64,000 nt of DNA from the NCBI GenBank assembly GCA_965112635.1, contig OZ218778.1, forward strand, positions 243,666 to 307,665. Direction: 5' to 3'. Positions within the stretch are counted from its first letter, which is position 1. Every line of letters begins with the position of its first letter. Shown here piece after piece: positions 5,670 through 45,065 of the stretch. A program made the position numbers and the translations under genes. Origin of the DNA: an uncultured bacterium. GTDB lineage: Bacteria > Oederibacteriota > Oederibacteriia > Oederibacteriales > Oederibacteriaceae. Under the pieces are notes generated by a model. That model ran no database searches. It worked only from the letters and a program-made list of their open reading frames with translations, and was not told the DNA's origin.

Positions 5670-5948
5670 TCATTTATATATTTCTCTTCTGTGCCCAATA
5701 TCAATAATAATGACCAACAGCACATCGGATTTGATCATATAAATGATCCGATAACTCCCTACCCGGTAGGAATACTGACCTTTTAAATCCCCATGAAGGG
5801 GCTTGCCCAGATACGGTTCCCTTTCCAGGCCGTGAAGAGCATTGCTGATCCTTTCATAAAGCGGCCTGTCTCGTTTTGCAAGCTTCTTATAAAATTTTTC
5901 TGCATCTTCCTGCAGGACAACAGTGTATTTATTCAATTTCTTTTTCAA
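5670..5948 (-). CDS. type II toxin, RelE/ParE family
   Basis: 92-aa ORF, RelE/ParE-like C-terminus (YRIIYMIKSDVLLVIIIDIGHRREIYK); overlaps upstream antitoxin gene by 20 nt; AT-rich relative to neighbours. Confidence 0.85.
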   Translation of the reverse strand: MKKKLNKYTVVLQEDAEKFYKKLAKRDRPLYERISNALHGLEREPYLGKPLHGDLKGQYSYRVGSYRIIYMIKSDVLLVIIIDIGHRREIYK

Positions 5949-6195
5949 TCTCCTCTAATGGACGCACCTTGCCTTTCTTCACATTTTCCAGTCCCGCTTT
6001 AATTCTTTTCATGGCACTGCGGTCATTCAAAATATCAAGGGTTTCCATCAAGGATTCATAATCCTCATAGCTCATAATTTCAGCCACAGGTTTGCCGTGG
6101 TTCGTGACCGTGACCCTTTCCAATTTATGGTCTATCTTCTTAAGAACGCCGGGCAAGGTTTGCCTCAATTCCCTGACGCTCAAAACATTATTCAT
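5929..6195 (-). CDS. type II antitoxin, Phd/YefM family
   Basis: MNNVLSVRELRQ N-terminus typical of Phd/YefM; GGAGG RBS 8 nt upstream of ATG at 6195. Confidence 0.85.
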   Translation of the reverse strand: MNNVLSVRELRQTLPGVLKKIDHKLERVTVTNHGKPVAEIMSYEDYESLMETLDILNDRSAMKRIKAGLENVKKGKVRPLEEIEKEIE

Positions 6196-6256
6196 CTGCA
6201 ACACCTCCTCATTATGAAAATTTTATGTTAAGTATAGCAGGAAAAGGGTTAATTTG

Positions 6257-6429: not shown

Positions 6430-7479
6430 TTAGCAGATCCTCGGCAGTTGGTCTCCGCTGAGCATGTCCAGGATCCTTCTCACGCCGATTTTGCTCTCCA
6501 GCGTGACCTGGCCCTTGGCGGCATCCAAAACCTTTCCCACCACAGCCGCTTCTTTACCAAGAGGATGGGCCCTCATCAAGTTAAGGGCTTTTTTCTCGTC
6601 TTTTTCCGGCACAAACAAGGCAAACCTGCCCTCATTGGCCACATACAAGGGATCCAGCCCCAGCATTTCACAGGCCGCCTGCACTTGATTGTTTACTGGG
6701 ATGGCCTTTTCTTCCAGGGCTATTTCCCTGCCAGAGGCCTGGGCTATCTCCACCATTGTCGTAGCCAATCCGCCCCGGGTCAGGTCGCGCAAACAATGGA
6801 CCTCGACCTCGGCCTTTAAGAGCTCCAGCACCAGGCCGGACAAGGGAGCGCAGTCGCTCTGGATGGTGGTTTCAAAATTCAACCCTTCCCGGCTGGCCAT
6901 GATGGCCATGCCGTGCCTGCCCAAATCTCCGTTGATGAGGATCTTGTCTCCGGGTTTGATGCTTTTGGGATGGATAACCAGCTTGTGGTCTATGGCTCCC
7001 ACCCCGGCGGTATTGATATACACGCCGTCCCCCTTGCCTTTGTCCACCACTTTGGTGTCACCGGTCACGACCTGCACTCCGGCCTCTTCGGCTGTTTTGG
7101 CCAGGGACTGGACGATTTGCCACAAGGTTTCCATGGCCAAACCTTCTTCCAATATAAAGGAAGCGGAAAGATAGAGCGGCCTGGCCCCGCACATGGCCAG
7201 ATCATTGACCGTGCCGCACACAGCCAGCTTGCCTATATCCCCGCCGGGGAAAAATAAAGGTTTGACCACGAATGAGTCCGAAGTGAAGGCCAGTTTTTCC
7301 CGTGTCGTGGGGAACACCGCGCTGTCGTGCCCTGCTCCAGGCAGGTCATTTTTAAAGGCGGGCAAAAACATTTTTTCGATGAGCTGGTGCATGAGTTTGC
7401 CGCCGCTGCCGTGGCCCAGGGTCACGACCGGATATTGGGCTATGGGGATGGGGCAGGTCAGATTAAATTCTTTAGGCAT
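6430..7479 (-). CDS. hypE: hydrogenase maturation carbamoyl dehydratase HypE
   Basis: HypE-like sequence ending in the characteristic C-terminal PRIC; AAGGAG RBS before ATG at 7479. Confidence 0.9.
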
Positions 7480-7501
7480 AAATATGCTCCTTAAAAATTG
7501 T

Positions 7502-7572
7502 GTCCAAAGTCTCAAGTCCAATGTCCAAAGTTTTTGTGTAACTTTGAACTTTAAACTTTGAACTCGGAACTA
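7502..7572. repeat. hypD-hypE intercistronic repeats (GTCCAAAGT x2, AACTTTGAAC x3) able to form stem-loops
   Basis: read directly in the 105-nt gap between hypD stop and hypE start. Confidence 0.4.
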
Positions 7573-7584: not shown

Positions 7585-8670
7585 TCAATGCTTCCTATAG
7601 TTGTAATAAGCTGCGCAGGCGCCCTCAGGCGACACCATCGGCGCACCCAGCGGCGTTTCCGGAGTGCAACGCGTGGCAAAAGCCGTGCATTCCTTGGGTT
7701 TTTTGATGCCCTGCAGGACCAGACCGCTGATACACTCGGGGTCTTCGCTCACCGCCAGGTCTTGGAGGTCAAACTTTTTTTCCGCGTCATAGGCCGCATA
7801 CTGGGGCCGCAGACCTAGGCCGCTCAAGGGGATCTCTCCGATACCGCGCCATTTGCGCGGTACGATCTGAAAAACTTCCTTGATGAGTGTCTGGGCAGGT
7901 AGATTGCCCTGCCTCTGGACACTGCGGGTATATTGATTCTCCACTTTGGCTTCGCCTTTTTCCAGTTGAGCGATGCATAGATACAGCCCCTCTAAAATAT
8001 CCACTGGTTCGAACCCCGTGACCACGATGGGAACTTTGAATTTCGCCGCCAGCGGTTCATACTCGGTATAACCCATGACCGTGCACACATGGCCCGCGGC
8101 CAGGAAGCCGTTGATCCTTTGGTTCGGGGAACTCAGGATCGCCTCCATGGCCGGCGGCACCAACACATGAGAGACCAGAATGGAAAAGTTCTTTATCCCC
8201 TGTTCCTTGGCCTGGAAAACCGCCATGGCATTGGCCGGCGCCGTAGTCTCAAACCCCACGGCAAAAAACACCACCTGTTTCCCTGGGTTTTCCCGGGCCA
8301 GCTGGAGACAATCCAGGGGTGAATACACCATGCGCACATCCCCGCCCTGGGCCTTGGCCAACAACAGGTTCTCTTTGGTCCCGGGCACGCGCATCATATC
8401 GCCGAAAGAGCAAAAGATGATGTCAGGCCGATGGGCCAGCTGGATGGCCTTATCGATGAGCTCGACGGGTGTCACGCACACCGGACATCCCGGGCCGTGG
8501 ATCAGGGTGATCCCCTTGGGCAACAGCTCATCCACTCCGTACTTGACGATGGAATGCGTCTGTCCGCCGCACAGTTCCATGATGTTCCAGGGCTTGGTGG
8601 TTATCTTCTGGATAAGTCCGGCGATATGGCGGGCTTGTTCCGGGTCACGGTATTCGTCGATAAATTTCAA
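7585..8670 (-). CDS. hypD: hydrogenase maturation factor HypD
   Basis: 361-aa ORF with HypD motifs (CGGQTHS, GPGCPVC); apparent TTG start overlapping the hypC stop. Confidence 0.9.
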
Positions 8671-8912
8671 CCAATGCCTTCCCTTCCCAGGGCATCCATC
8701 TCACGAAAAGCTTCGTAGACTTTGGCCGCTTCTTTTTCATCCAACCGGCTGATGGCAAAACCCACATGCACATACACATAGTCGCCGACCTTAGCCTCAG
8801 GCACATAGGCCAGGCAGGCCTCTTTGATCACGCCTTCGTAACTCACTTTGCCCATACGGGTCTGGGCGTTCTCTTCAATGCTAATGATCTTACCGGGTAT
8901 GGCTAAACACAT
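8667..8912 (-). CDS. hypC: hydrogenase maturation factor HypC
   Basis: 81-aa ORF starting MCLAIP, the HypC/HupF hallmark. Confidence 0.9.
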
Positions 8913-8974: not shown

Positions 8975-9150
8975 TTATCGTAAAGTGCTTTCAACAACCT
9001 TATTATTATCATTATTTCACGAATCATTAGTCCGGGCAACCGCTTCAAGTATTATCTGATGAGACTTTTTCGGCGGACTAATGAGGTTGACTTTCCCCTC
9101 TGGGCTTGTTAGCTTTTTTTTGCACTGGGCAACAGCCCAGCCCGGAGCGC

Positions 9151-9178
9151 CATGCTCATGCATGCGTGCTTTAGCACG
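9151..9178. promoter_or_regulatory. composite palindromic motif copy C (CATGCTCATGCATG + CGTGCTTTAGCACG), ~240 bp upstream of hypC
   Basis: read directly; related to copies at 1940-1969 and 2051-2091. Confidence 0.4.
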
Positions 9179-9212
9179 AGCCAAAGGATCATTCTTGGCA
9201 AGCGAAGGTGCA

Positions 9213-9252
9213 GTTCGTATGCTATTCTATAAAAAATTAATAGCATACGAAC
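9213..9252. promoter_or_regulatory. candidate NikR operator: perfect 14-bp inverted repeat with 12-bp spacer, containing GTATGC-N19-GCATAC
   Basis: read directly; 50-90 bp upstream of the OMP gene that heads the nikR/nickel-uptake block; overlaps a possible -35 TTGGCA / -10 TATGCT. Confidence 0.45.
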
Positions 9253-9304
9253 CAGCATCAATTATTCAATTTTTTGTAAAGAACTTTAAATTAGGAGGAA
9301 ATAA

Positions 9305-10229
9305 ATGTTCCCCTCCAAAGTCTATCTATTCATTTTCACACTGCTCCTATTATCCTTGACCAATCAGGGCCTGTGCCATGTGATACCCACTACTCCTAAT
9401 GATGACTGGAATCCAGTTTCCACCGGCCCCATCAACACCTGGACCGCTTCCCTGGAACCCGCCGGGGAACTTAACACTCAGCTCTTTGTTTTTTACACCA
9501 TGACCACGGGATTTTATGACGGGGCGGGAAAGTTCTGGTCATTGCCGGATAACACCACCAAGACCCAGTTCCAGGAGCAGCTGTTCCTCCAATATGCTAT
9601 CAACCCTATGTTTGAAATGGATGCCCAACTTTCCACTTTTCAAAATACGCTCAAGGTCGGCGACCAGACTTCCTATTATAGTGGCCCGGGTGACTCGATC
9701 TTCTTTTTGCGTTATGCCATCGCCACCGAAACTCATCCTTACCCCTTCCTGACCGGCGTACTCCAGCTCAGGGTTCCCTCGGGCAATTTTCTTAACCAAA
9801 CCTCCACCCTAAGGACTTCTGATCTCACCGGCACGGGAAGCGTGGGCAGTGGGTATGGGGTTGATGGCCACCAAAAAACTCAAACCATTCTTGCTGCATA
9901 CCGACCTCATCTACAATGTACCCTTACAGACCCAGACCAATATCACTTCTATTAACTACGGCGACTCCGTGAATTATGACCTGGGTGCCGAATACTTTAT
10001 GTCCTACGGATTTAACCTGTCCATGGAGATGAATTATATCTACGAGGCCACTGGCAGTATTTATGGCTTATTCACTCCCGGCGTTTCGGGTAACTACCTC
10101 ATGCTGACCCCGGGACTAGGCTGGGCCGTAAAAAATACCCAGTTACTACTCGGCTATCAATGGGGACTCTATGGCGTCAACACCGATGCCCTAAGTTCCT
10201 ATGTCTTTACCGCCTCGGCTCCGTTCTAA
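9305..10229 (+). pseudogene. putative outer-membrane beta-barrel protein, reading frame broken at an A6 run near 9874-9879
   Basis: signal peptide MFPSKVYLFIFTLLLLSLTNQG, C-terminal aromatic residue; two overlapping ORFs (9305-9955, 9849-10229) rejoin if A6 is read as A5. Confidence 0.5.
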
Positions 10230-10267
10230 AAAAACACTCGTCGGACAAAACTTAAGGAGGCAAAATT

Positions 10268-10684
10268 ATGGCAGGTTTAGTAAGATTTGGCGTATCCCTG
10301 GAAAAAGAACTTCTCAAAAAATTTGATCGACTTATCACCCAAAAACACTACACCAACCGCTCCGAAGCCCTGCGCGACCTCATCCGGGAAGAATTGGTCA
10401 AAGAACAATGGAACCAGGGAGACGAAGTGGCCGGCGCCATTACCCTGATCTACAACCACCACCATAGAGACCTGACCGATAAATTGACTAACATTCAACA
10501 TGATTATGGAGACTGCATCCTGTCTTCCCAGCACATCCACCTAGACCACCACCACTGCCTGGAGATCATCGCGGTCAAAGGGTCCCCCAGCCAGGCGCAA
10601 AAACTGGCCGACACCCTCCACGCGGTTAAAGGAGTCATGCATTCCAGCCTCAGCATGTCCACCACCGGCAAAGAAATACATTAA
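10268..10684 (+). CDS. nikR: nickel-responsive transcriptional regulator NikR
   Basis: 138-aa ORF: ribbon-helix-helix N-terminus (RFGVSLEKELLKKFD) plus His/Cys-rich C-terminal domain (HHHRD, HLDHHHC). Confidence 0.9.
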   Translation: MAGLVRFGVSLEKELLKKFDRLITQKHYTNRSEALRDLIREELVKEQWNQGDEVAGAITLIYNHHHRDLTDKLTNIQHDYGDCILSSQHIHLDHHHCLEIIAVKGSPSQAQKLADTLHAVKGVMHSSLSMSTTGKEIH

Positions 10685-10816
10685 ACCGTATTTTCACTCG
10701 TAACTCCCAGTCCATATCTCCTCAAAAATAATGACCCTCAAACTCTTGACAGACCTACTCCTATGTGTTACTTTTCCAAAATTCGTGTTACTAATTATAC
10801 AAGAGGAGGATTTAAG

Positions 10817-13009
10817 ATGATGAAAAGCAATAAAACCAGGTTTTCCTTGGTCGGTTTTATTTTTTGTTCGCTATTGTTGTCCAACCCTAGCTGGGGGCAG
10901 GATGGCGCCAACAGCACCCTGGATGCATTGCGTCATGACAGCAGCCCTGCGGCAGTTACTAAGAGCGCTATACCTGTAAGTGTGACCAAGACCGCTGCAA
11001 CGGAGTCAACCGTGGCCGGTGAAGAAGTAGTGGTTAGAGGCAGGGCTGCCAACTTGCTGGGACTGGCAGACTCGGCCATGCAGGGCAGTGTCAGCCAGGA
11101 AGACCTGAGCCACCGTGCTTTGCTCAGGACGGGAGAAGTTATGGAAGCCGTACCCGGACTGCTCATCACACAGCACAGTGGTGACGGCAAAGCCAACCAG
11201 TATTTCAGCCGAGGTTTTAATCTTGATCACGGCACTGATTTTTCATTCAATGCTGATGATGTTCCTATTAACCTGCCCAGCAATGCCCATGGTCAAGGCT
11301 ATACAGACCTTAATTTCCTCATTCCCGATCTGGTTAAGGAAGTGAACTATTCCAAAGGACTTAATAGCGTTGAATACGGGGAATTTAATACCGCAGGCTC
11401 AGCCAATTTTGTTTATCCCAATACTCTGCCCCAAAATATCGCTTCTCTGACCATGGGAGAATGGGGATATCAGAGAGGGCTTTTGGCCGCATCCAACCCC
11501 TTGGGGTCAGGGAATTTGTTGTACGCCGTGGAAGTTTGCGGTTATGACGGTCCCTGGGATGTCCCGGAAGATAATAAAAAATATAATGGATTGCTTCGCT
11601 ACAGTTATGGAAACTCAGAGAGCAGGTGGGCGATCACGGCATCCCTTTATCAGGCTGCCTGGACCTCCACTGACCAGGTCCCGCAACGAGCGGTGGACGA
11701 GGGTCTGATCGATTTCTGGGGCAGCCTTGATCCGACTGATGGCGGTAAGACAAAACGCTACAGCGTTTGGGCAAGCTGGAATGGCCAATCCCAGGACTGC
11801 CAGTCCATGGTCATGGCCTATGAAACCTATTTTCATATGAATCTTTGGAGCAACTTCACCTATTTTACTGACGATCCTGTTCACGGCGACCAGTTTGAAC
11901 AGGAAGATGAGCGGTATATCACCGGCGCTAAAGCCAGGCAGATATACAACAACACTATCGCCGGGCTGGCCATGAAAAATGAGATCGGCGCGGATTTCCG
12001 CAATGATGACGTGCCCATCCTGGGCCTTTACGATACGGAGGCTCATATTCCGTGGCAAACCGTCCAGCTTAACCAGATGGTCCAAACCAGCGGAGCTCCC
12101 TATGCGGAAAATACCACTTATTGGACACCATGGCTGAGAAGTATTTTGGGATACCGTCACGACTTCTTCCATTTCAAAGTTAACGGTGCTACTCCTGCTA
12201 CCAGCGGAGAGGCTGATGCCAACATAGCCGAACCTAAGGTAGCCCTGGTGCTGCGGCCTTATGAAGGGCCGGTGGAGCTGTACGCCAACTATGGCTGGGG
12301 TTTTCACTCCAATGACGCGCGTATCATTGCGCCGGATGCTTTAAATCAGTTAAGCATTATGGGCAACAATGTGAACACCGCTCCCCTGGTCCACGCGGAG
12401 GGAGAAGAAGTAGGCGCCCGTTTCGGCTGGCAGAATTTATTTGAATCCACGGTATCTTTATGGCGCCTGCATCTGGATTCTGAATTGACTTTTGACGGAG
12501 ACGCGGCCGCTCCCAGTCCCAATGGGCCTTCTACGCGTAATGGGGTGGAATGGTCCAATTCCTTGAGGCCTAAACCCTTTTTCCTGGATTTCGACTACTC
12601 CTGGTGCCAGGCGCGGTTTGATCAGACTGCGTTAGATGATGATGGAGAGCACCCGGGTGAGTATGTGCCGGAGGCTCCGGTAAACATGGCTACAGCCACT
12701 TTAGGCACTGATCCCATAGAAGGCTGGTCTGCGGACTGTCGTTTGCGTTACTTTGGGGCAAGGCCGCTGGTACCGGATAATTCGGTGCAATCCAGCGACC
12801 TGACACTGGTAAGTCTTCGTGTCAGCCGTCAGCTGACGGAAAATCAATCCATTTTCTTCGATATTTTTAATCTTTTTAACCAGCGGGGTTATGATATTTC
12901 TTATTATTACGCCACAAGCGTACAGTCGGGAGCCCCGTCGATCCCGGACATAAACAGTAAACCCGCTGAGCCGCGGTCTTTGCGTGTGACCTGGCAGGAC
13001 CGTTTCTAA
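10817..13009 (+). CDS. TonB-dependent outer-membrane receptor, probably nickel/metal uptake by context
   Basis: signal peptide, plug-domain-like region, ~700-aa barrel ending in F; GAGGAGG RBS before ATG at 10817 (track ORF starts at 10763). Confidence 0.85.
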   Translation: MMKSNKTRFSLVGFIFCSLLLSNPSWGQDGANSTLDALRHDSSPAAVTKSAIPVSVTKTAATESTVAGEEVVVRGRAANLLGLADSAMQGSVSQEDLSHRALLRTGEVMEAVPGLLITQHSGDGKANQYFSRGFNLDHGTDFSFNADDVPINLPSNAHGQGYTDLNFLIPDLVKEVNYSKGLNSVEYGEFNTAGSANFVYPNTLPQNIASLTMGEWGYQRGLLAASNPLGSGNLLYAVEVCGYDGPWDVPEDNKKYNGLLRYSYGNSESRWAITASLYQAAWTSTDQVPQRAVDEGLIDFWGSLDPTDGGKTKRYSVWASWNGQSQDCQSMVMAYETYFHMNLWSNFTYFTDDPVHGDQFEQEDERYITGAKARQIYNNTIAGLAMKNEIGADFRNDDVPILGLYDTEAHIPWQTVQLNQMVQTSGAPYAENTTYWTPWLRSILGYRHDFFHFKVNGATPATSGEADANIAEPKVALVLRPYEGPVELYANYGWGFHSNDARIIAPDALNQLSIMGNNVNTAPLVHAEGEEVGARFGWQNLFESTVSLWRLHLDSELTFDGDAAAPSPNGPSTRNGVEWSNSLRPKPFFLDFDYSWCQARFDQTALDDDGEHPGEYVPEAPVNMATATLGTDPIEGWSADCRLRYFGARPLVPDNSVQSSDLTLVSLRVSRQLTENQSIFFDIFNLFNQRGYDISYYYATSVQSGAPSIPDINSKPAEPRSLRVTWQDRF

Positions 13010-13037
13010 CTAAATAATTAAGGAGGAAATTAACTAG

Positions 13038-13661
13038 ATGCAGACTATTTTGCAAAACTTGGCTCTGATCGGGGACGTCTGGGTCATCTACCTTTTGATC
13101 GCCGCAAGCCTGCTTTCTTTGGCGGTCATGGTGGAAAGATGGATGGTCTTCTCGCGTAACAGGGGAGATGTCACGGTTCTAATGGACGGATTAGGCGAAC
13201 GCCTGGAAAAAAAGGATATCAAGGGGGCTCTGGAATTTACCCGTGGTTTTCCCAATGTGGAGGGCAGGGTTGCCGTGGCGGGACTGGAGCATTTTTCCAA
13301 AGGCGCGGCTTCCGTGGAAGAGGCCATGTCCGCCAGGATCATCCGAGAGCGGAAGCATTTGGGGAAAAAACTGATCATCCTCAGCACGCTGGGCAATAAC
13401 GCGCCCTTTATCGGGTTGTTCGGGACCGTGCTCGGTATCATCAAAGCGTTCAACGACCTTGCGGTCAGCGGAAGCTCGGGGGTGTCCGTGGTCATGGCCG
13501 GCATTTCCTCGGCTCTGATCGCCACGGCATTCGGCATCGCGGTGGCTGTCCCCGCCGTCATAGCCAATAATTATTTCCGCAACCGGCTCAACGAGGTCAG
13601 ATCCAACGCCGAAGAGGTGTCCAAAATGCTTTTGCTTTACATCAAAGCGCAGGGAAAGTAG
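13038..13661 (+). CDS. exbB: MotA/TolQ/ExbB proton channel protein
   Basis: 207-aa membrane protein with ExbB/TolQ-like TM helices; AGGAGG RBS. Confidence 0.85.
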   Translation: MQTILQNLALIGDVWVIYLLIAASLLSLAVMVERWMVFSRNRGDVTVLMDGLGERLEKKDIKGALEFTRGFPNVEGRVAVAGLEHFSKGAASVEEAMSARIIRERKHLGKKLIILSTLGNNAPFIGLFGTVLGIIKAFNDLAVSGSSGVSVVMAGISSALIATAFGIAVAVPAVIANNYFRNRLNEVRSNAEEVSKMLLLYIKAQGK

Positions 13662-13670
13662 GAGGAAGCC

Positions 13671-14069
13671 GTGCAAAACTCTGAAGACGAACAGGAAATA
13701 GTCGGCGGCATCAATATCACGCCCATGGTGGATATCACCCTGGTACTGTTGATCATTTTCATGGTCACGGCGACCTTTATGGCGCAATCAGGCCTGAAAG
13801 TGAACCTTCCCAAGGCGGTCACTACCGAAGCGGCTTTCACCGCCAGCCTGACCGTAACCCTGGATTCCAAGGGTTATCTCTATCTGATGAAGTCACCCAT
13901 AGATGAGAAAGGTCTCAGGGCTGCCCTGCAGCACGAAGTCAGGCTCAATCCCGGCGTGAAAGTTACCATTGCCGCAGACAAGAAACAATATTATGAGCAG
14001 GTCATCCATATCCTGGACCTGGTCAAGCAGGCGGGTATCAGTAAAGTGGCGCTAGCCGCGGAAAGGTAG
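13671..14069 (+). CDS. exbD: ExbD/TolR biopolymer transport protein
   Basis: 132-aa ORF, single TM then periplasmic domain; GTG start with GGAGGA RBS. Confidence 0.85.
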   Translation: MQNSEDEQEIVGGINITPMVDITLVLLIIFMVTATFMAQSGLKVNLPKAVTTEAAFTASLTVTLDSKGYLYLMKSPIDEKGLRAALQHEVRLNPGVKVTIAADKKQYYEQVIHILDLVKQAGISKVALAAER

Positions 14070-14075
14070 GGCGGG

Positions 14076-14684
14076 TTGTTTTCTGTTTCCGGTGTGAATG
14101 GTGGGTGGCAGGACCCTGGAAGAAAAGATTTTTATCTGGGCGCCGTGGTGTCATTGGCCGTGCATCTGGCGCTGCTTGCCATTTTTTACTGTTTATTTTC
14201 CTACCTGAAGAACAGCGCGCCTGTGTCCATGGACCTGGACCTTTCCGTGGCCCCTGCTGTGGTTCCCTTGAGCCGTCCCGTGAAAAAAGAACATGTGGTT
14301 CCGCCCCAAGCCTGGGTGGCGCCTAAAGCTGGGATAGCTCCGACACCCCAAAATGTAAGTGAAACCGCCCAGCCGGTGGAAGAACAATATGTGCCCTCAG
14401 CCGTTACAGCGCTCAAGCCCCGCTGGTTAGACGGGTTTATTACCGATGAGGACTACCCGCCGCAGGCGCGGAGCAAAGGGGAAAAGGGAACGGTCAAGGC
14501 GGAAGTTTTTATTGATGCCTCAGGTATGGTCAAGGATCTGAAAATAGTCCAGGAAAGTTATCCTGCCTTGAATGAGGTGGTTTTGCACAAATTAAAGGAT
14601 GCCAAGTTTACGCCAGCCCGTGATGCCTCGGGAAAACCTGTGCCCTGCAAGATGTTGCTGCCCATTAAATTTGAATTGTATTAA
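14076..14684 (+). CDS. tonB: energy transducer TonB
   Basis: N-terminal TM, Pro-rich linker, TonB-like C-terminal domain; TTG/GTG start, exact start uncertain. Confidence 0.7.
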   Translation: MFSVSGVNGGWQDPGRKDFYLGAVVSLAVHLALLAIFYCLFSYLKNSAPVSMDLDLSVAPAVVPLSRPVKKEHVVPPQAWVAPKAGIAPTPQNVSETAQPVEEQYVPSAVTALKPRWLDGFITDEDYPPQARSKGEKGTVKAEVFIDASGMVKDLKIVQESYPALNEVVLHKLKDAKFTPARDASGKPVPCKMLLPIKFELY

Positions 14685-14766
14685 GATAGTTCTTGATTAT
14701 GTTCAGGAAAAAGCTATTACCAAAACAGTGAAGCCATCCTGCTGACTTTATGAAAGGATAAATTTT

Positions 14767-15786
14767 ATGCACATTCCTGACGGATATTTAGGACCGACCA
14801 CCTGCGGATTTTTTTATGTGGTCATGGTGCCGATCTGGATGACCGCTTCCCGCATGGTCAAAAAGACCCTCAAGGCCGGTCAGATCCCTTTTCTGGCCAT
14901 TGGCGCGGCTTTTAGCTTTGTCATTATGATGTTCAATGTCCCCATCCCCGCTGGCTCTACCGGCCACGCGGTAGGCGGCGCCTTGATCGCCATCCTGCTC
15001 GGACCCTGGGGCGCCTGTCTGACCGTTTCCGTAGCCTTGGTCATCCAGGCCTTTTTGTTCGGAGATGGCGGCCTGACCGCCATCGGCGCCAACTGCTTTA
15101 ATATGGCCGTCGTACTGCCCTTTTCTGCGTACCTTATTTACCGGCTCTTGTCCGGCTCCGCCCAAAAAAGTCCGACCAGAAATGTCTGGGCCGCGGGTAT
15201 CGCCGGCTACCTTTCCATCAATATCGCCGCTCTGTGCGCCGGTGTGGAGTTCGGCTTACAGCCTTTGCTCTACCATACCGCGGATGGACAGGCTCTTTAC
15301 TGCCCGTTCGGCTTGAGCGTTGCAGTGCCGGCCATGCTGGGCGGACACTTGCTGGTTTTTGGGTGGATAGAAGGCTTGGTCACCGCTCTGCTGGTCAAAT
15401 ATCTCCAACAGCACTCTCCTGAAATGCTCGCTCGCCCCGCCCTAAAAACTTCCACCAAATTATGGGCCTGTCTTGGCATCCTTGCGGTGCTGACCCCGTT
15501 AGGACTGCTCATCCCCGCCTGGCTCCACGGAGGAGACGCCTGGGGTGAGTGGGCGCCTGAAGAAATACAAAAAATCGCCGGCTATGTTCCCCAGGGCCTG
15601 CAAAAACTTTCCGCGCTCTGGAATGCCCCTTTGGCTGACTATGGTTTTAAAAGCTGGGAAGGAAAAGGATTGGGATACTCAAGCCTAGCCTATATAATAT
15701 CAGCCGTTCTAGGCGCAGCCCTGATCGCTTTTTGCGTCTGGTTATTGTTCAAATATCTCTTCCGGAAAGGCTTTTCCAAAAAATGA
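14767..15786 (+). CDS. nikMN: ECF-type Ni/Co transporter substrate-capture protein, fused NikMN (CbiMN-like)
   Basis: starts MHIPDGYL (CbiM/NikM hallmark); 339 aa with extra C-terminal TM region consistent with an N-component fusion. Confidence 0.85.
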   Translation: MHIPDGYLGPTTCGFFYVVMVPIWMTASRMVKKTLKAGQIPFLAIGAAFSFVIMMFNVPIPAGSTGHAVGGALIAILLGPWGACLTVSVALVIQAFLFGDGGLTAIGANCFNMAVVLPFSAYLIYRLLSGSAQKSPTRNVWAAGIAGYLSINIAALCAGVEFGLQPLLYHTADGQALYCPFGLSVAVPAMLGGHLLVFGWIEGLVTALLVKYLQQHSPEMLARPALKTSTKLWACLGILAVLTPLGLLIPAWLHGGDAWGEWAPEEIQKIAGYVPQGLQKLSALWNAPLADYGFKSWEGKGLGYSSLAYIISAVLGAALIAFCVWLLFKYLFRKGFSKK

Positions 15787-16589
15787 ATTTTGTGGAACGC
15801 ACTATCCTGGCTGCTCTTTCCCTGCTGAAAAATTCCATGTTCGCCGAGGATATCGCCCGCCAAAAAGGGCTCTTACAAACACTGGACCCACGGGTCAAGG
15901 CTGTTTCTTTGCTGGCCTTGATCGTGCTGGTCCTGTTCACCAAAAACTTATGGGTACTGGCTTGTATTTATGGTCTATGTCTGGTCCTGGCTATGCTATC
16001 GAGGATCCGCCTGCTGTTTTTCCTGGAGCGCACCTGGATCTTTATCCCCCTGTTTTCCCTGCTCATCGCCATACCTGCTCTTTTTAGTTTTGTATCACCG
16101 GGCCGGCCTTTGTTCTCCTGGGGGATATGGACCATCACCAGCCAGGGATTAGGCAGCGCCGTCATCTTTATCAGCCGCGTCATCACCTCGGTGTCCCTAG
16201 CCGTGCTTTTGAACCTGACCACCCGTCACCTGGAACTGCTCAAGGTCCTTAGGATATTCGGGATCCCGCAAATGTTCGTCATGATCCTGTCCATGAGCTA
16301 CCGTTATATTTTTCTTTTTGTGGAGATCATGGAAAACACCCACCGGGCCGTGCAGAGCCGCGTCGGCTCGGCCATTCATTATAAAAAAGGTCAGCACCTG
16401 GTGGCCTGGAGCATGGCTGGCCTGTGGAGCCGTTCAGTCGGCCTGCAGGAACAGGTGCACCACGCCATGCTCTCCCGCGGATTTCAAGGCGAGCCGGTCC
16501 TCCTGCACCGCATGAGCACAAGGTTCAGGGACTGGGCCTGGCTGGCCTGCGTTCTCGTCCTGGTAGTCTGTTTGTGGGGAGCGTCCTGA
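15783..16589 (+). CDS. nikQ: ECF transporter transmembrane (T) component NikQ/CbiQ
   Basis: polytopic membrane protein; ATG overlaps nikMN stop (ATGA). Confidence 0.8.
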   Translation: MNFVERTILAALSLLKNSMFAEDIARQKGLLQTLDPRVKAVSLLALIVLVLFTKNLWVLACIYGLCLVLAMLSRIRLLFFLERTWIFIPLFSLLIAIPALFSFVSPGRPLFSWGIWTITSQGLGSAVIFISRVITSVSLAVLLNLTTRHLELLKVLRIFGIPQMFVMILSMSYRYIFLFVEIMENTHRAVQSRVGSAIHYKKGQHLVAWSMAGLWSRSVGLQEQVHHAMLSRGFQGEPVLLHRMSTRFRDWAWLACVLVLVVCLWGAS

Positions 16590-17401
16590 TGAAACCTATC
16601 TTTGAGTTTCAAAAAGTCAGCTATGCTTACCTGGGTAAATTCCCGGCCCTGCGGGACATCACTCTAACTATCCCGGCTGGAAAAATGGTCACCCTGGTCG
16701 GCGCCAACGGTTCGGGCAAATCCACGCTCCTGCAGATGATGGACGGTCTTTTGTTCCCGGACAGCGGGACCATAGTTTTTGATGGCAGACAGCTGGCCAG
16801 CGCTGAACTGGAAAAACAGGACTTTTCCAAGACCTTTAGACAAAAGGTAGGACTGGTCTTCCAGAACCCCGACATCCAGCTTTTTTGTCCTACGGTCCGC
16901 GAGGATATTATTTTTGGTCCGCTCCAGCTGGGGATAGACGAAAAAATAGTGATGAACCGATTGGAAGAGTTGGCCGTAGCCCTTAAACTCACGCCTCTCC
17001 TGGACCGTGCCCCGCATCAGTTGAGCATCGGCGAAAAACGCAAGGTGGCCATAGCCTCCACCCTGGCCATAGACCCTGAGGTTTTGCTTTTGGATGAACC
17101 CACAGCCGGCCTGGACCCCATGACCACGGCTTCCATCCTGGAGATCCTGCTCACAGCCAATCAGTCAGGCAAGACCATTATTACAGCCACCCACGACCTG
17201 CATATTTTAGAGGAGATCGCGGACACAGTGTTCGTTTTCGGGCAGGATAAGACCATCGTCGCGGAAAGCACCCCCGAATCCATACTCAAGGATACGGACC
17301 TCCTGCAAGCGAACAACCTGGTGCATTTTCATCCGCACAGCCATAAAGGCAGGATGCACCAGCATCCCCACCAGCACCCGGACCACCACGAAGGAAGCTA
17401 A
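16589..17401 (+). CDS. nikO: ECF transporter ATPase NikO/CbiO with His-rich C-terminal tail
   Basis: Walker A GANGSGKST, signature LSIGEKRK, Walker B LLLDEPTAGLD; tail HFHPHSHKGRMHQHPHQHPDHHEGS; start overlaps nikQ stop. Confidence 0.85.
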   Translation: MKPIFEFQKVSYAYLGKFPALRDITLTIPAGKMVTLVGANGSGKSTLLQMMDGLLFPDSGTIVFDGRQLASAELEKQDFSKTFRQKVGLVFQNPDIQLFCPTVREDIIFGPLQLGIDEKIVMNRLEELAVALKLTPLLDRAPHQLSIGEKRKVAIASTLAIDPEVLLLDEPTAGLDPMTTASILEILLTANQSGKTIITATHDLHILEEIADTVFVFGQDKTIVAESTPESILKDTDLLQANNLVHFHPHSHKGRMHQHPHQHPDHHEGS

Positions 17402-17423: not shown

Positions 17424-17816
17424 TTATCTAAGCTGTTCTATCCGCTTTTTCAGCTCATTGAATACATCCTGGAAGCTTTGCCTTTGTTCTTCCTGGGTCA
17501 GGCCCGGCCTGGCCGGGTCAGGCAAGCCCCAATGTATCCTCTTGGCCTTGCCCAAAAATACCGGGCATTCCTCCTCCGCGCACAGGGTTATGACCGTATC
17601 CACCGTGGCGGGGTCTATCTCCTTCACGGATTTGGAGCGTTGTTGGGATAGGTCGATGCCAGCCTCCTGGGCAACTTGGATGGCCAGTGGATGGACCCGT
17701 GAAGGCTTGGACCCGGCGCTTTGCACCATGACCTCGGGCCCCAAGATATGCCTGGCCAATCCTTCAGCCATCTGGCTGCGCGCCGAATTGCCCACGCAAA
17801 GGAAAAGTATCTTCAT
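17424..17816 (-). CDS. arsC: arsenate reductase, LMW-PTP/thioredoxin-coupled type
   Basis: 130-aa ORF with CVGNSARS P-loop. Confidence 0.85.
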
Positions 17817-18874
17817 GGCTTCCCTTCCTTAAAATAGGCCCTCTTGAAATACAACGCCACATTGACCAGGCTGATCAAGACCGGCACCTCGACCAAGGGG
17901 CCGATGACCGCGGTAAAGGCCACTGCCGAACCAATGCCGAACACGGCCACCGCTACCGCGATGGCCAGCTCAAAATTGTTGCTGGCCGCGGTAAAAGACA
18001 ATGAAGCGGTCTGGGCGTAACCGGCCTTGAATTTTCTGCCCAGGTAAAAGGAGATAAAGAACATCACCACAAAATAGACCAGGAGCGGCATGGCGATACG
18101 CAGGACATCCAGCGGAATGCGGACTATGGTCCCTCCCCTGAGCGAAAACATCACGACGATCGTAAAGAGCAAAGCAATGAGCATGATAGGACTGATACGG
18201 GGAATGAATTTATTTTGGTACCACTCTTTGCCTTTGGCCCGGATCAGGAAGATGCGCGTGAACAACCCGGCCAGGAAAGGGATACCGAGATAGATAAAAA
18301 CGCTCTTGGCGATCTGTGCGATGGTCACGGGTACCGCGGCTCCGGCCAGGCCAAACCATCTCGGCAGGACCGTGATAAAGACCCAGGCAAATACGGAAAA
18401 AAACAGGACCTGGAATATGGAGTTAAAAGCCACCAGCCCGGCGCAGTATTCGCTGTCCCCGCAGGCCAGCTCGTTCCAGACAATGACCATGGCAATGCAC
18501 CGGGCCAGTCCTATCAGGATGAGGCCGATCATGTATTCGGGGTAGTGGCGCAGGAACAGGACAGCCAGGCTGAACATCAGGATAGGCCCAATGACCCAGT
18601 TGAGAACAAGGGACAGGATCAGGACCTTGATATTTTTGAACACATCTCCCAGTTCCTCGTATTTGACCTTGGCCAATGGCGGGTACATCATCAGGATAAG
18701 CCCGATGGCTATGGGAATATTTGTCGTACCCGAGGAAAAGCCGTTGACCAGAGATGAAATGCCCGAATAAAAATATCCTATGCCCACGCCCATCCCCATA
18801 GCCAGAAATATCCACAGGGTTAAATAACGGTCCAGGAAGGAAAGTTTTTTAAGAAGACTATTTGGGGGTTTCAT
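17813..18874 (-). CDS. acr3: ACR3-family arsenite efflux permease
   Basis: 353-aa polytopic membrane protein of ACR3 size and pattern; stop overlaps arsC start. Confidence 0.8.
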
Positions 18875-24134: not shown

Positions 24135-25280
24135 TTAGCAGTTGAATATTTTCTTTTTTTGCTTCAGGTAATATTCATAGTTTTTGAGCGGGACAGTAGG
24201 CGGGCAGCGGTGGTCAAACCCGGGCACAAACCCTCCCTGCTTGACCGTAGCTTCCAGATATCTGAGCTCGTCGTCAATATCCTTGAACGAGCCCTGTATC
24301 TTGATCTTGTCCACTCCGCCCCACAGCAGGATCTGGTCCCCATATTTAGCCCGGAGCTTGACCGGGTCCGTGCCGCAGGCGCGCTCCATGGGGAACATGC
24401 AGTTGTATCCCGCCTCCAGGAAAATGGGCACCAACAGGTTGATGTCACCGTCGCAGTCCGTATAGATCACGTCGATCCCGTATTTGTGGAGCAGGCGGCT
24501 GATCTTCTTGTACTGGGGCAGGACATACTGGCGGTACATGGCCGGCGAGATCATGGGCCCGTTCTTAAAAGCCACATCCTCCCAGCCGTGGGCAAAATCG
24601 AACTGGACTTCCTTGAGAGCCGGTTCGATCAGGGCGCAGATAAAATCACCCATATACTCGATCATCTCGGCCATAAGCTCCGGCTGGTCGTAAAAAGCCA
24701 CGGTGATGTTCTCGAAACCCATCCAGTCACGGGGCTTGCCGATCATAGAGCCAATATCTATGCCCACGGGTACTTTGCGGTTGATCCAGCCCTCCACGTC
24801 CTTTTTCCAGGTCTTCGGATATCGCCCGGGGTCATGCGGGTCCAGCCTGGTCTTTTTGAACTCTTTCCAGTCCGCTGGGCCTTTGATGGGGAATTCGATG
24901 AAATGAGGGATGGAGGACATGCCCTTCTTTCTATTGATCTCGCATGTGACGCCGTTAGCGTCGATCATGATGACATGGCTTTCGCTTTTTTCCAGTATCC
25001 TTTCCTCAAAGTAGGGGTAAACATTCGTTTGTATCCCGTCCCCTTCGCAGCTTTCGATCCCGAAATACTGGTAGGCGGTCGCCTCGTCCTTGACCCATGC
25101 AGGCAGGCCCTGCTGGTGCCAGACATCCAGGGTCTCTTCCCAATACCCGAACTCAAAATTGGGGATCCTGTCCACGCTTTGATAATGCATGGTGCGCTGG
25201 AAGCGCTCCCGCGGGGACATGCTCTTATTCTTTTTGGGAGCCTGTTTTTTATCCGCTATTTTTTTAGCCGCTTTGACCAT
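24135..25280 (-). CDS. uroporphyrinogen decarboxylase (URO-D)/MtaA-family protein with Lys-rich N-terminal extension
   Basis: URO-D-like fold; ATG at 25280 has GGAGGGG RBS; alternative starts at 25364 and 25220. Confidence 0.75.
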   Translation of the reverse strand: MVKAAKKIADKKQAPKKNKSMSPRERFQRTMHYQSVDRIPNFEFGYWEETLDVWHQQGLPAWVKDEATAYQYFGIESCEGDGIQTNVYPYFEERILEKSESHVIMIDANGVTCEINRKKGMSSIPHFIEFPIKGPADWKEFKKTRLDPHDPGRYPKTWKKDVEGWINRKVPVGIDIGSMIGKPRDWMGFENITVAFYDQPELMAEMIEYMGDFICALIEPALKEVQFDFAHGWEDVAFKNGPMISPAMYRQYVLPQYKKISRLLHKYGIDVIYTDCDGDINLLVPIFLEAGYNCMFPMERACGTDPVKLRAKYGDQILLWGGVDKIKIQGSFKDIDDELRYLEATVKQGGFVPGFDHRCPPTVPLKNYEYYLKQKKKIFNC

Positions 25281-25388
25281 GGATCCCCTCCACAACGCGT
25301 AAGGAACGATGAAGTAATGATTGACCCTCAATAATAGAACAGGGGTACCCAATTGTAAATACAACGGATACCCCTGATCCTTATTAAA

Positions 25389-26207
25389 TTATGGGCGTTT
25401 TTTGGCCAGTCCCAGGAATGATACGACGACCAGCAACAGAACCGGCATAACCCCAAAACAAACCACGATGAAAGGGCCCGTGGGCATATCCAACCCGTAG
25501 CTGACGGCCATGGCCCCCAGGCTAACGATGAACCCGAAAACCCAACCGAAGATCAGCCTGGCCTTTATGGTGGTAAAAAAGTATGTGCTAATCAGCGAAG
25601 GCACGATCAGGTACGAGAAGACCTGCAGGACACCCGCGATGCTCACCGAGGAAGTGATGACGATCCCGAACAGCACATAGAACAGCAGGTCCCATCCCAT
25701 GGTCCTCTCGGTCCGGCGCCCGAAAGAAACATCCAGTAGGGGCTTGCGGAAAACATAATGGATCAACCCGACCACCGCGTAAATGACCGCCGTCTTGACC
25801 ACATCATGCCAGGTCACCCACAGGATCTGCCCGGCCAGCAGGTCTTTGATGTGTTCCAGGCCGTGGGCCAGCCTGTTGGCCACCAGCACGACCGCGGCCG
25901 AGGAAAGGGCGAAAACAACACCAATGATCGCTTCCTGCGAGAACATGCTTTCTTGTCTCCGGGCCAAGGCGAATATCCCAGCCGCCAAAAAGGTCGAACA
26001 TAAGGAGATGAAATAAAGGGTCAGAGAGTGTTCCTCGAACCCCAGCAGCAAAGCCACCGAGGCCCCCAGCGCCGCGACCTGGGCCAGGGAGAGATCCACG
26101 AAAATCACTCCCCTGGCCAGCACATGCATGCCCAAGTAGCAATGGATGCCCGCTAAAATAAGGGACATCACAAAAGGCGCTAAAAGGAACTGAATAGCTT
26201 CGTTCAT
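25389..26207 (-). CDS. metal ABC transporter permease, ABC-3 (ZnuB/MntB/TroC-like)
   Basis: 272-aa polytopic membrane protein of ABC-3 size and pattern. Confidence 0.85.
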   Translation of the reverse strand: MNEAIQFLLAPFVMSLILAGIHCYLGMHVLARGVIFVDLSLAQVAALGASVALLLGFEEHSLTLYFISLCSTFLAAGIFALARRQESMFSQEAIIGVVFALSSAAVVLVANRLAHGLEHIKDLLAGQILWVTWHDVVKTAVIYAVVGLIHYVFRKPLLDVSFGRRTERTMGWDLLFYVLFGIVITSSVSIAGVLQVFSYLIVPSLISTYFFTTIKARLIFGWVFGFIVSLGAMAVSYGLDMPTGPFIVVCFGVMPVLLLVVVSFLGLAKKRP

Positions 26208-27128
26208 TTATTTACCCTCAATGATCGAGACAAGCCGCTCCACCAGGTCGTCAGTGGTCTTGACGGCTGGCTCTCCGCCGACCTCCTCCGGAACCATGAC
26301 CACCCTCATTCCCGGCACCTCCTGGATGACCTTGTCGGCAAAGCTGGTGTCAAAGACATTCTCCACCATGATCAGCTTGATCCCCTGCTCTTTGGCCACC
26401 CGGATCACTTCCAGGATATGCTTGGCCGTGGGCGGGATACCGGGTTTTGGCTCCATGGTGATGGGATTCTCGATACCGAACCGGTCAAAGAAATAATTGA
26501 GCGTTTTGTGATAGGTGATGATCTTCTTGACGCCGGCCTTGTTGATTCTGTCCAGCCATGCCTTGGTCTTTTCCTCCAGTCGTTGCTGCATTTTTTTGGC
26601 GTTATCCATGTAAAGATCGGCGTGTTCCGGGTCCATTTCTCCCAGATGTTCGGCGACTTTGATCGCCACCTGTCCTACCCGGATGGGATCAGTCATAAAG
26701 TGGGGATTTCCAAAAGGATGGACATCTCCTTCTGCCCTGGAAACCTTGGTATTGGGAACCTCGATGGTCTCGATGAATGGCCCCACCTCCAGATAACCGG
26801 CAGTTCCCGGCATGACTTTGGGATTGCGCGCCCCCTGCAGGATGGGAGGCAGCCATCCTATCTCCAGCTCCAGCCCGATGGACACTACCAGGTCAGCGCG
26901 ATTGACCTTGACCATATAGGAAGGTTTGGCCTCTATGTAATGGGGGTCCTGGGTCCCTTTGGACAGGGACTCCACGGTCACATGATCCCCGCCGATCTCC
27001 GAGACCATGGCGGCCAGGTCCGGGATGGTTGTGATCACGTTAAGTTTAGCCTGCGCTGGTCTGGCCAAGGCACACGCCACGACCAAACCAAACATCGTTA
27101 ATGTTCGTTTCATAATGGTCCTCCTCAA
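26208..27128 (-). CDS. metal ABC transporter substrate-binding protein (ZnuA/TroA-like)
   Basis: signal peptide, cluster-9 SBP-like sequence with His/Glu/Asp metal-site region. Confidence 0.85.
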   Translation of the reverse strand: MRRTIMKRTLTMFGLVVACALARPAQAKLNVITTIPDLAAMVSEIGGDHVTVESLSKGTQDPHYIEAKPSYMVKVNRADLVVSIGLELEIGWLPPILQGARNPKVMPGTAGYLEVGPFIETIEVPNTKVSRAEGDVHPFGNPHFMTDPIRVGQVAIKVAEHLGEMDPEHADLYMDNAKKMQQRLEEKTKAWLDRINKAGVKKIITYHKTLNYFFDRFGIENPITMEPKPGIPPTAKHILEVIRVAKEQGIKLIMVENVFDTSFADKVIQEVPGMRVVMVPEEVGGEPAVKTTDDLVERLVSIIEGK

Positions 27129-27131
27129 CGT

Positions 27132-28229: not shown

Positions 28230-28256
28230 AGTTTTCTCCTTAATTTTTTAGTTGAC

Positions 28257-28280
28257 GAACCTGTAGCGTTTAACAGGTTC
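28257..28280. promoter_or_regulatory. 8-bp inverted repeat GAACCTGT-N8-ACAGGTTC just upstream of the OMP/SBP/permease operon RBS
   Basis: read directly. Confidence 0.3.
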
Positions 28281-28296
28281 TACGGAACCTAACGAA

Positions 28297-28563
28297 TTAG
28301 GAGACGGCAGGCGGAGCCTTGTTGCTGATCAGTTCCTTGGCTGGAGTGGGTAAAAAATCAGGGATGGGATTGGGTAAGAATGAAATGAATTCGAACTGGG
28401 GAGTGATGACCACGGCCTCTACCGTGCTGACGAATACGCATTGGCCCCAGTTGCACGCTAAACAATGGTCATCGGGTTCATCCAAGGGATGGTTATGGAG
28501 GAATGGGATAGCTGAAAACCACAAACACAGAACGATAAATAATATTTTTTTGGTCAGTGTCAT
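28297..28563 (-). CDS. small secreted/membrane protein with HNH..DxxDH and CxxC motif (possible metal-binding)
   Basis: 88-aa ORF from ATG 28563; signal-like MTLTKKILFIVLCLWFSAIPFL then HNHPLDEPDDHCLACNW. Confidence 0.4.
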   Translation of the reverse strand: MTLTKKILFIVLCLWFSAIPFLHNHPLDEPDDHCLACNWGQCVFVSTVEAVVITPQFEFISFLPNPIPDFLPTPAKELISNKAPPAVS

Positions 28564-28620
28564 GGCTATAAGGCTAACCCTTCTCACCCAATAAAGTCAA
28601 GAGAGTAGAAGTTTGTATCA

Positions 28621-29244: not shown

Positions 29245-29255
29245 ACACACTCCTT

Positions 29256-29299
29256 AAAAAAGAAAAGCAGCCTTCGCTTAGATAAGAAGACTGCTTTTC
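29256..29299 (-). terminator. candidate rho-independent terminator after the small ORF (9-bp stem, 20-nt loop, T6 on minus strand)
   Basis: GAAAAGCAG...CTGCTTTTC inverted repeat followed on the minus strand by TTTTTT. Confidence 0.4.
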
Positions 29300-29316
29300 T
29301 CAGAATCCCTAATAGA

Positions 29317-29388: not shown

Positions 29389-29438
29389 ATGCCCTCCTTT
29401 CTTTACAGCATTATACTCCAAAAACATTTCAAGTAAAT

Positions 29439-45022: not shown

Positions 45023-45065
45023 ATTCCTGTCCCCCTTCCCAAAATAGCCATGACCCTTTGATGCA

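Follow-up and report, generated by a model that had tools for sequence, protein, structure and literature searches.

We analysed a 64-kb stretch of DNA, hereafter the window (64,000 nucleotides, positions 243,666 to 307,665 of contig OZ218778.1 in assembly GCA_965112635.1), from an uncultured bacterium of the family Oederibacteriaceae. Nine genes on its + strand (9305-17401) encode, in order, a small outer-membrane barrel, the nickel-responsive repressor NikR, a TonB-dependent outer-membrane receptor, ExbB, ExbD, TonB, a fused Nik(MN), NikQ and NikO. An initial annotation, made from the sequence alone, had described these genes as a nickel import block running from the outer to the inner membrane. 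All nine were found in the order it gave. Eight of the encoded proteins were identified directly by Pfam and NCBIfam profile searches, the barrel being the exception; family cut-offs are quoted beside the scores where given. The hypCDE genes, which the annotation had placed beside the cluster, are indeed divergent from it (8912-6430) and were confirmed by Pfam. They are genomic context and lie outside the importer proper. We consider it highly probable that the genes of this region serve nickel acquisition under repression by Ni-NikR; they are probably organized as two transcription units. The cluster is a largely ordinary assembly of known nickel-uptake parts, and adds an example to a known class. 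The coordinates of all features are collected in Table 1.

Table 1. Features of the nickel cluster and of the divergent hyp genes, in window coordinates
Feature	Position	Strand	Basis or remark
hypE	6430-7521	-	Pfam AIRS/AIRS_C
hypD	7585-8670	-	Pfam HypD, 516.8 bits
hypC	8667-8912	-	Pfam HupF_HypC, 91.8 bits; divergent from the nickel cluster
Promoter-like site P1	9195-9223	+	TTGGCA, 17 nt, TATGCT; consensus scan 9/12
Inverted repeat, candidate NikR operator 1	9213-9252		GTTCGTATGCTATT-N12-AATAGCATACGAAC
Small outer-membrane barrel gene, COG4313/PF13557-like subfamily	9305-10229	+	Frameshifted in the window assembly
nikR, nickel-responsive ribbon-helix-helix repressor	10268-10684	+	PF08753, PF01402, NF003381
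TTGACA and tandem GTGTTAC, candidate NikR operator 2	10746-10791		Ahead of the receptor gene
TonB-dependent outer-membrane transporter gene, candidate nickel receptor	10817-13009	+	Plug domain
exbB, MotA/TolQ/ExbB proton channel	13038-13661	+	PF01618, 109.6 bits
exbD	13671-14069	+	PF02472, 108.9 bits
tonB	14076-14684	+	TTG start, 202 aa, C-terminal TonB domain
Fused nik(MN)	14767-15786	+	CbiM and PDGLE domains
nikQ, energy-coupling factor (ECF) T component	15783-16589	+	TIGR02454, 150.1 bits
nikO, ABC ATPase, His-rich C-terminal tail	16589-17401	+	ABC_tran, 108.5 bits

The receptor gene was taken to start at 10817, and not at 10763 as in the list of open reading frames (ORFs), since the ribosome-binding site AGGAGG and a 730-aa database protein (P0001) agree on the former. 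The start codons of nikQ and nikO each overlap the stop codon of the gene before, that of nikQ being placed as in the gene call for L001, another publicly available assembly of this locus. The complete nine-gene arrangement was absent from the 129 other related loci examined. GC content was 0.47-0.49 across 9000-12000 (the barrel gene, nikR and the 5′ part of the receptor gene) against 0.53-0.55 in the flanks, a dip that may go back to an acquisition or a rearrangement.

Nickel sensor and inner-membrane importer

NikR scored 30.5 bits against PF01402 (N-terminal ribbon-helix-helix domain; cut-off 20.5), 103.7 bits against PF08753 (C-terminal tetramerisation and nickel-binding domain; cut-off 22) and 182.9 bits against NF003381 (cut-off 105), and was closest to the NikR of Pyrococcus horikoshii (2BJ1, 143 bits). 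When it was aligned to 2BJ1 and to Helicobacter pylori NikR (2CA9), the H-x-H-x5-C motif and the QH ligand were found to be kept (QH...HIHLDHHHC). The high-affinity nickel ligands of NikR are the residues of H-x-H-x5-C together with a His contributed by the neighbouring chain. GuNikR, the protein of Geobacter uraniireducens, is said to possess an Arg-Gly-Ser β-strand like the VRFGVSL of the cluster NikR.

Nik(MN) gave 208.9 bits with CbiM, 29.4 bits with PDGLE (cut-off 27) and 413 bits with NF005598 (cut-off 401). Its S component, NikM, scored 234 bits against TtNikM2 (4M58 and 4M5B, both Ni-bound; PMC3945884), as compared with 57 bits against Rhodobacter CbiM (RcCbiM, 5X3X). The transporter thus groups with NikM and not with the CbiMNQO cobalt importers, the grouping that the initial annotation had set against its own reading. 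All residues assigned to the TtNikM2 nickel site and its support (PMC3945884) were kept, namely Met1, His2, Thr65, His67, Gln94, Gly101, Gly102 and Asn109. The PDGLE (NikN-type) domain is joined to the C-terminus of NikM, and Pfam gave no CbiN match. The same NikM-NikN fusion is present in the Nik(MN)QO of Rhodobacter capsulatus, which is experimentally active (PMC3945884). NikQ, a T component of the CbiQ family, passed the TIGR02454 cut-off of 111.8 bits. NikO matched ABC_tran but stayed under the cut-off of the ECF-ATPase equivalog models (236 vs 330).

Close NikMN relatives follow nikR (L129; L numbers denote related loci) or the gene of a Fur-family regulator (L130), and the homologs are drawn from many phyla. 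Receptor and TonB genes were absent from the contexts of three close NikMN homologs. One metagenome-assembled genome, GCA_040961635.1, carries two nik loci (L084 and L129), with the order nikR-barrel-nikM-nikN-nikQ-nikO in one and a barrel-less nikR-nik(MN)-nikQ-nikO in the other. It may be noted that the His-rich C-terminal tail of the window NikO (HFHPHSHKGRMHQHPHQHPDHHEGS, 17327-17398) has a similar counterpart in the NikO of L084 (HVHRHRHKGTTHSHPHLHLEHHDEHGKG) and a shorter one in L086; as an extension of the ATPase, the tail may serve in nickel binding or regulation.

Candidate NikR operators

The initial annotation had placed a single NikR-box-like palindrome at the head of the whole cluster. 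The palindrome is there, is perfect and occurs once in the window: its 14-nt arms (9213-9226 and 9239-9252) are 100% complementary across a 12-nt spacer, and none of 100 shuffles contained such a repeat. The -10 hexamer of P1, a consensus match only, overlaps its left arm. The arm AATAGCA(TA)CGAA resembles AATAGCACGAA, a half-site conserved 5′ of the barrel genes in relatives. The palindrome is plausibly a NikR box, but only if it is read in the 7-N14-7 register as ATGCTAT-N14-ATAGCAT.

A further site, which the annotation had missed, lies before the receptor gene. nikR and the receptor gene are separated by 132 nt, in which a perfect TTGACA (10746-10751) is followed by tandem half-sites GTGTTAC at 10765-10771 and 10785-10791, with 13 nt between them. 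When both strands of the 64 kb were searched, the heptamer GTGTTAC/GTAACAC occurred in these two copies only, and the pair appeared in none of 300 shuffles. GTGTTAC-N13/14-GTAACAC is the published NikR site of delta-proteobacteria (PMC545781). Read on the minus strand, the window operator is GTAACACGAATTTTGGAAAAGTAACAC, and its flanking CGAAT is also common to the relatives. In 25 loci (~19 distinct sequences), the pattern GTA[GA]CAC(GAAT)-N13-[GA]TA[GA]CAC is present between nikR and the barrel gene. The same tandem pattern was matched 4 times in the remaining ~340 kb, which is near the chance expectation.

The half-sites of operator 2 are tandem, whereas the classical arrangement is inverted, and this speaks against its assignment to NikR. 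Everted NikR half-sites have been predicted in Desulfotalea psychrophila (PMC545781), and a half-site as nearly symmetric as GT-nnn-AC may explain inverted, everted and tandem arrangements alike. As a candidate NikR operator, the tandem site is better supported than the palindrome. Because the tandem site is accompanied by a palindrome that overlaps a promoter-like element and resembles a conserved half-site, we propose two putative NikR-controlled promoters, one for the barrel gene and nikR (nikR being autoregulated) and the other for the genes from the receptor through nikO. Autoregulation of nikR is known in H. pylori (PMC3177205).

One more sequence in the format of the Escherichia coli box, GTATGATTGGCGCACTGCGGGTCATAC, was found at 57922-57948. 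It lies inside a 354-aa ORF, ~0.8 chance matches are expected per 64 kb, and it was set aside as probably fortuitous.

Outer-membrane components and the TonB set

The receptor plug matched PF07715 with 45.2 bits (cut-off 23.9). The receptor itself gave no Pfam barrel match, though PF00593 is present in many homologs. Its AlphaFold2 model (pLDDT 71, pTM 0.76) aligned over ~700 columns to the full-length TonB-dependent transporters PqqU, YncD and FecA, with TM scores of 0.65-0.73, in keeping with a C-terminal barrel of 22 strands. A candidate TonB box, EEVVVRG, was located by eye ahead of the plug, in a segment where the model confidence is low.

All 8000 scored candidates for the receptor family were at E<=1e-10, and the best 120 were at least 41% identical. 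Gene neighbourhoods were examined in 80 genomes with a relative of 39-47% identity. In 20 of the 80, nikR lies within 10 kb of the receptor relative, mostly adjacent to it; these genomes are from Betaproteobacteria, Methylobacterium, Bradyrhizobium, Dechloromonas, Acidobacteriota, Verrucomicrobia and others. Canonical NikR boxes (GTATGA-N15/16-TCATAC) stand immediately 5′ of the receptor gene in L005, L021, L040, L073, L077 and L078, and delta-type half-site pairs were found in L045, L068, L069 and L081; overall, ~10 receptor relatives have NikR boxes 5′ of them. In the nearest lineages, L002 and L089, the receptor gene comes directly after a NiCoT or NikMN gene. The gene orders are exbB-exbD-tonB...receptor2-NiCoT-receptor-ZIP in L002, whose ExbB is 63% identical to the window ExbB, and exbB-exbD-tonB-nikMN-receptor-ZIP in L089. 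A grouping with siderophore or B12 receptors, which the initial annotation had also counted against nickel, was not what emerged; elsewhere, members of the family are associated with nikR and with NikR boxes. The nickel specificity predicted for the receptor is well supported by this association. Together with the grouping of the transporter, its PDGLE domain and the lack of a B12 riboswitch, it supports reading the cluster, as the initial annotation did, as one that imports nickel across both membranes.

Two side observations concern the same family. A palindrome, TTGAAAAT-N-ATTTCAA, is shared by L002 (2474-2490) and L089 (6978-6994) upstream of exbB, and similar sequences occur 5′ of the NiCoT and receptor genes (near 8440 and 9775 in L002 and near 9880 in L089); it may be the box of a Fur-family regulator (Nur or Zur). 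For the receptor homolog P0066 (837 aa), the annotation places a HupE/UreJ (nickel permease) domain at the N-terminus. This protein is either a true fusion or the product of two genes called as one, and forms a further nickel link for the receptor family.

TonB matched PF03544 with 56.7 bits and TIGR01352 with 36.6 bits (cut-off 27.1). The genes exbB, exbD and tonB are encoded together, and the next gene 3′ is nik(MN), not tolB or pal. Close ExbB orthologs adjoin receptor relatives in L002 and L089. The initial annotation had regarded a private TonB set inside the nickel locus as the less usual part and had suggested asking whether exbBD-tonB travels with nikMNQO and the receptor. It rarely does. 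Besides the source locus L001, ExbB/ExbD accompany the receptor in merely 3 loci, of which L002 and L052 come from the 80 genome loci and L089 from three metagenome contexts of the closest receptor homologs; none was present in 44 barrel loci or in the 3 NikMN contexts. The set is therefore rare among relatives, yet already known in kind. Ni-NikR acts directly on exbB-exbD-tonB of H. pylori, with 369-fold repression, and nikR (hp1338) and exbB (hp1339) bear consecutive locus numbers there (PMC3177205); ExbB/ExbD/TonB energise FrpB4-dependent nickel uptake in that species (PMC3856676). Nickel-regulated ExbB-ExbD-TonB clusters in Proteobacteria are attributed by a review to a comparative study of 2006 (PMC4284471).

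The barrel gene does head the cluster, as the initial annotation had stated, but a frameshift in it had been overlooked. In the window it is broken into a pair of ORFs, 9305-9955 and 9849-10229, which overlap but differ in frame, the window reading GGGAAGC where L001 reads GGGAGC (L001 9023-9024). In L001, the gene is intact and encodes a 307-aa protein with a signal peptide and a C-terminal Phe. No Pfam family matched this protein, PF13557 not being reached even at E<=10. The five homologs detected (37-43% identity) are all members of PF13557, and the subfamily profile reached 4RL8 only at E=0.3. Among the homologs is P0125, from a nikR-barrel-nikM-nikN locus. Its AlphaFold2 model (pLDDT 94.5) is a 12-strand barrel, and the best matches of the model were FapF and the COG4313 channel Pput2725 (4RL8; Foldseek E 3.6e-14, TM 0.71/0.81). 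Carried over from P0125 at 42-43% identity, the COG4313 12-strand fold is predicted for the window barrel as well.

The barrel subfamily comprised 68 clusters (50% identity) at E<=1e-30. All three homolog contexts had the order nikR-barrel-nikM-nikN, two of them running straight into nikQ-nikO. Among 38 metagenome barrel loci, nikR was immediately upstream in 25 and nikM downstream in 17. The barrel is thus a regular and apparently undescribed partner of nikR: no paper linking COG4313 or PF13557 to nickel was found in our literature searches, and the COG4313 proteins that have been described are implicated in taking up hydrophobic aromatics (PMC4493636). Where nikR is lacking, some members immediately precede FeoB (ferrous iron; L096 3001-5011) or ZIP (L121 6841-7590) genes. 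These neighbours suggest a general role of the barrel in divalent-metal uptake, and an outer-membrane channel for divalent metal cations is the simplest reading of the subfamily. On the simplest reading of the gene orders, the TonB block was added to an ancestral nikR-barrel-nikMNQO module, the barrel gene moved ahead of nikR, and nikM and nikN were fused.

In addition, an alternative module was seen in L095, L099, L103, L105, L109, L112 and L124, in which nikR and the barrel gene are followed by genes for membrane proteins of ~92-104 aa that belong to no Pfam family. In L109, L112 and L124, two such proteins are encoded side by side (e.g., L109 6905-7528). They have in common an N-terminal MAC(F/Y)L.PT.AAIVTT and a (D/E)HI..GE motif, and may constitute an undescribed small nickel permease.

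Alternative readings, known systems and the proposed nickel route

The cluster might be taken for a cobalt or cobalamin importer, consisting of a CbiMNQO-type transporter and a BtuB-like receptor. The S component is called 'cobalt transporter CbiM' by NCBIfam and in source annotations, the receptor plug gave weak BtuB matches (27-28 bits), and Co2+ can also bind at the NikM/CbiM metal site (PMC3945884). We nevertheless regard this reading as extremely improbable. The database name reflects generic model names; nickel is favoured over cobalt because of the NikM score, the conserved ligands, the PDGLE domain in the place of CbiN, the lack of a B12 riboswitch and the nikR-linked relatives. No Rfam family was matched in the window (no cobalamin riboswitch, no rRNA), no cobalamin biosynthesis genes were seen in it, and nikR itself is within the cluster, together with NikR-type operators. 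A different question is whether the receptor and its TonB set serve nickel at all, and here several findings weigh against our reading. The best solved matches to the receptor are at most 17% identical, by sequence only the plug matches (28 bits), and the sole NCBIfam match is to a siderophore-receptor model, TIGR01783, below threshold. ExbB and ExbD are under all the NCBIfam equivalog cut-offs (TolQ, TolR, ExbB and ExbD). The closest receptor lineages, L002 and L089, are without nikR and carry ZIP and ferritin genes along with a different, Fur-like palindrome, so that metal specificity may not be uniform across the clade. With ExbB/ExbD present in so few receptor-family loci, the block could be a general or an iron/zinc-type TonB system, nickel entering by porins or by the small barrel only. 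This appears improbable to us. The TonB block falls within the nickel cluster, shares its strand, has short gaps (28, 9, 6 and 82 nt) and stands immediately behind a NikR-type operator; 25% of the receptor relatives are linked to nikR, several with canonical boxes, and even in L002 and L089 the receptor gene is directly 3′ of a NiCoT or NikMN gene.

Two further doubts concern the 5′ end of the cluster. The palindrome 9213-9252 may not be a NikR site, but a site for another regulator of hypCDE or the barrel gene, or a structural element, NikR acting only at 10765-10791. Its GTATG...CATAC cores are 22 nt apart, as against 17-18 nt in the seven canonical boxes upstream of receptor relatives that were used for comparison. 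This excess of 4-5 bp led us to reject it as an E. coli-type NikR box. An inverted-repeat search found no copy of it in the intergenic regions of relatives, where the tandem GTA[GA]CAC is close to the start codon of the barrel gene; the window palindrome ends 52 nt upstream. We consider this possibility unlikely, given the likeness of the palindrome arm to the conserved half-site, the 28-bp geometry of its 7-N14-7 register, which is that of known NikR boxes (PMC545781), and its overlap with a promoter-like hexamer directly 5′ of the barrel gene and nikR, a gene known to be autoregulated elsewhere (PMC3177205). As for the barrel gene, the one extra A at 9838/9839 splits it, and the source annotation calls a shortened product of 216 aa (P0122); it may be a true pseudogene in this strain, leaving the cluster to work by the TonB-dependent route alone. 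We think this somewhat unlikely. The gene is intact in L001, which is otherwise identical over 22 kb, and the contig names suggest that the metagenomes were assembled from long reads, a setting in which indels of one base are frequent errors.

The nickel cluster shares features with several known systems. Its putative TonB-energised nickel uptake recalls the NikR regulon of H. pylori (FrpB4, FecA3; PMC3856676), in which the receptor genes and exbB-exbD-tonB are direct targets of repression by Ni-NikR (PMC3177205). In H. pylori, by contrast, the receptor and the inner-membrane transporters (NixA, NiuBDE) are dispersed, iron uptake draws on the TonB set as well, and AT-rich operators are used (TATWATT-N11-AATWATA), while the genes of the cluster form one co-directional block with an ECF importer. 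No characterised receptor is detectably close in sequence to that of the cluster. Like R. capsulatus Nik(MN)QO and TtNikM2, the importer has a fused M-N protein, a single T component and a single ATPase, and the Met1/His2/His67 site of TtNikM2 (4M58) is kept along with its hydrogen-bond network (PMC3945884). Unlike R. capsulatus Nik(MN)QO, it has a His-rich tail on NikO and is co-encoded with two outer-membrane components. The candidate operator at 10765-10791 has the identical heptamer and the N13 spacing of the delta-proteobacterial NikR operators (PMC545781), but its half-sites are tandem, as in the 25 nikR-barrel loci, and not inverted. The barrel is comparable to the COG4313 channel Pput2725 through the model of its 43%-identical homolog. 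It differs from the COG4313/PF13557 channels implicated in uptake of hydrophobic aromatics (Pput2725, TcpY; PMC4493636) in that its subfamily adjoins nikR/nikMNQO, FeoB or ZIP genes, and in that the window protein has no Pfam match.

Further precedents are the predictions of 2006, as cited in PMC11247825 and PMC4284471, of NikR-regulated TonB-dependent receptors (Daro_3944, Bll6948 and Rgel01002199) and of ExbB-ExbD-TonB clusters. The logic and the components are the same, and the receptor family is, as cited there, the one predicted to consist of nickel receptors. Loci of Dechloromonas and Bradyrhizobium in which nikR is adjacent belong to the window receptor family, and L047, L068 and L077 have NikR boxes. 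Orthology to the three named proteins is suggested by organism and context only. In Caldithrix abyssi, nikR-receptor-nikMNQO loci stand behind NikR-like motifs (PMC5317091).

We propose the following scheme for the nickel cluster. One unit would comprise the barrel gene and nikR, behind the palindrome that overlaps the promoter-like site, and the other the receptor gene, exbB, exbD, tonB, nik(MN), nikQ and nikO, behind TTGACA and the sites at 10765-10791. When nickel is scarce, apo-NikR would be off both operators and both units would be transcribed. At the cell surface, the receptor would bind either Ni2+ itself or nickel in a small chelate, and ExbB-ExbD-TonB would use the proton-motive force to bring the nickel through it to the periplasm. 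If its gene is intact, the 12-strand barrel would provide a second, passive route across the outer membrane. Periplasmic Ni2+ would be held in the square-planar site of Nik(MN) formed by Met1, His2 and His67, and NikQ and the ATPase NikO would power its entry to the cytoplasm. The imported nickel would then be used in [NiFe]-hydrogenase maturation, which is its most likely destination because hypCDE is the divergent neighbour, this adjacency being the sole basis of the link.

Some other features were observed elsewhere in the window. An arsC gene (low-molecular-weight phosphatase type) and a gene for an ACR3-like arsenite carrier (17424-18874, - strand) are convergent with nikO. A Phd/YefM-ParE toxin-antitoxin pair (5670-6204, - strand) lies between hypE and a glycosyltransferase/GH130 block. 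A second metal-related cluster (24135-30485, - strand) encodes two URO-D-like proteins, an ABC-3 permease, a ZnuA-like binding protein, a 365-aa protein without a Pfam match and a cation-diffusion-facilitator (CDF) efflux protein. At 42809-56507 (- strand), a series of genes encodes PAS-rich hybrid histidine kinases and response-regulator proteins (737, 529, 491, 890 and 1111 aa).

In most bacteria, nickel is assumed to cross the outer membrane by porins. To our knowledge, its passage through this membrane is experimentally known only for a few Helicobacter receptors. In the cluster, a single nickel sensor would govern two candidate routes across the outer membrane, an energiser and an importer in the inner membrane; as a compact system, it lends itself to tests of how active and passive nickel entry divide the labour. 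The conserved tandem operators form a natural set for studying how NikR reads non-palindromic sites. The nikR-linked barrel of the COG4313 type outweighs the cluster itself, being a testable candidate for a general nickel channel. We put forward tentatively, leaning slightly against it for the present, that the small barrel represents a subfamily of COG4313-fold proteins that are dedicated NikR-controlled channels for Ni2+ and, more widely, for divalent metals, independent of TonB, and that the nikR-barrel-nikMNQO module is governed by NikR operators of tandem half-sites, the cluster being a rare elaboration that adds a TonB route. If true, this would constitute a TonB-independent route for nickel across the outer membrane, new to the literature that we searched.

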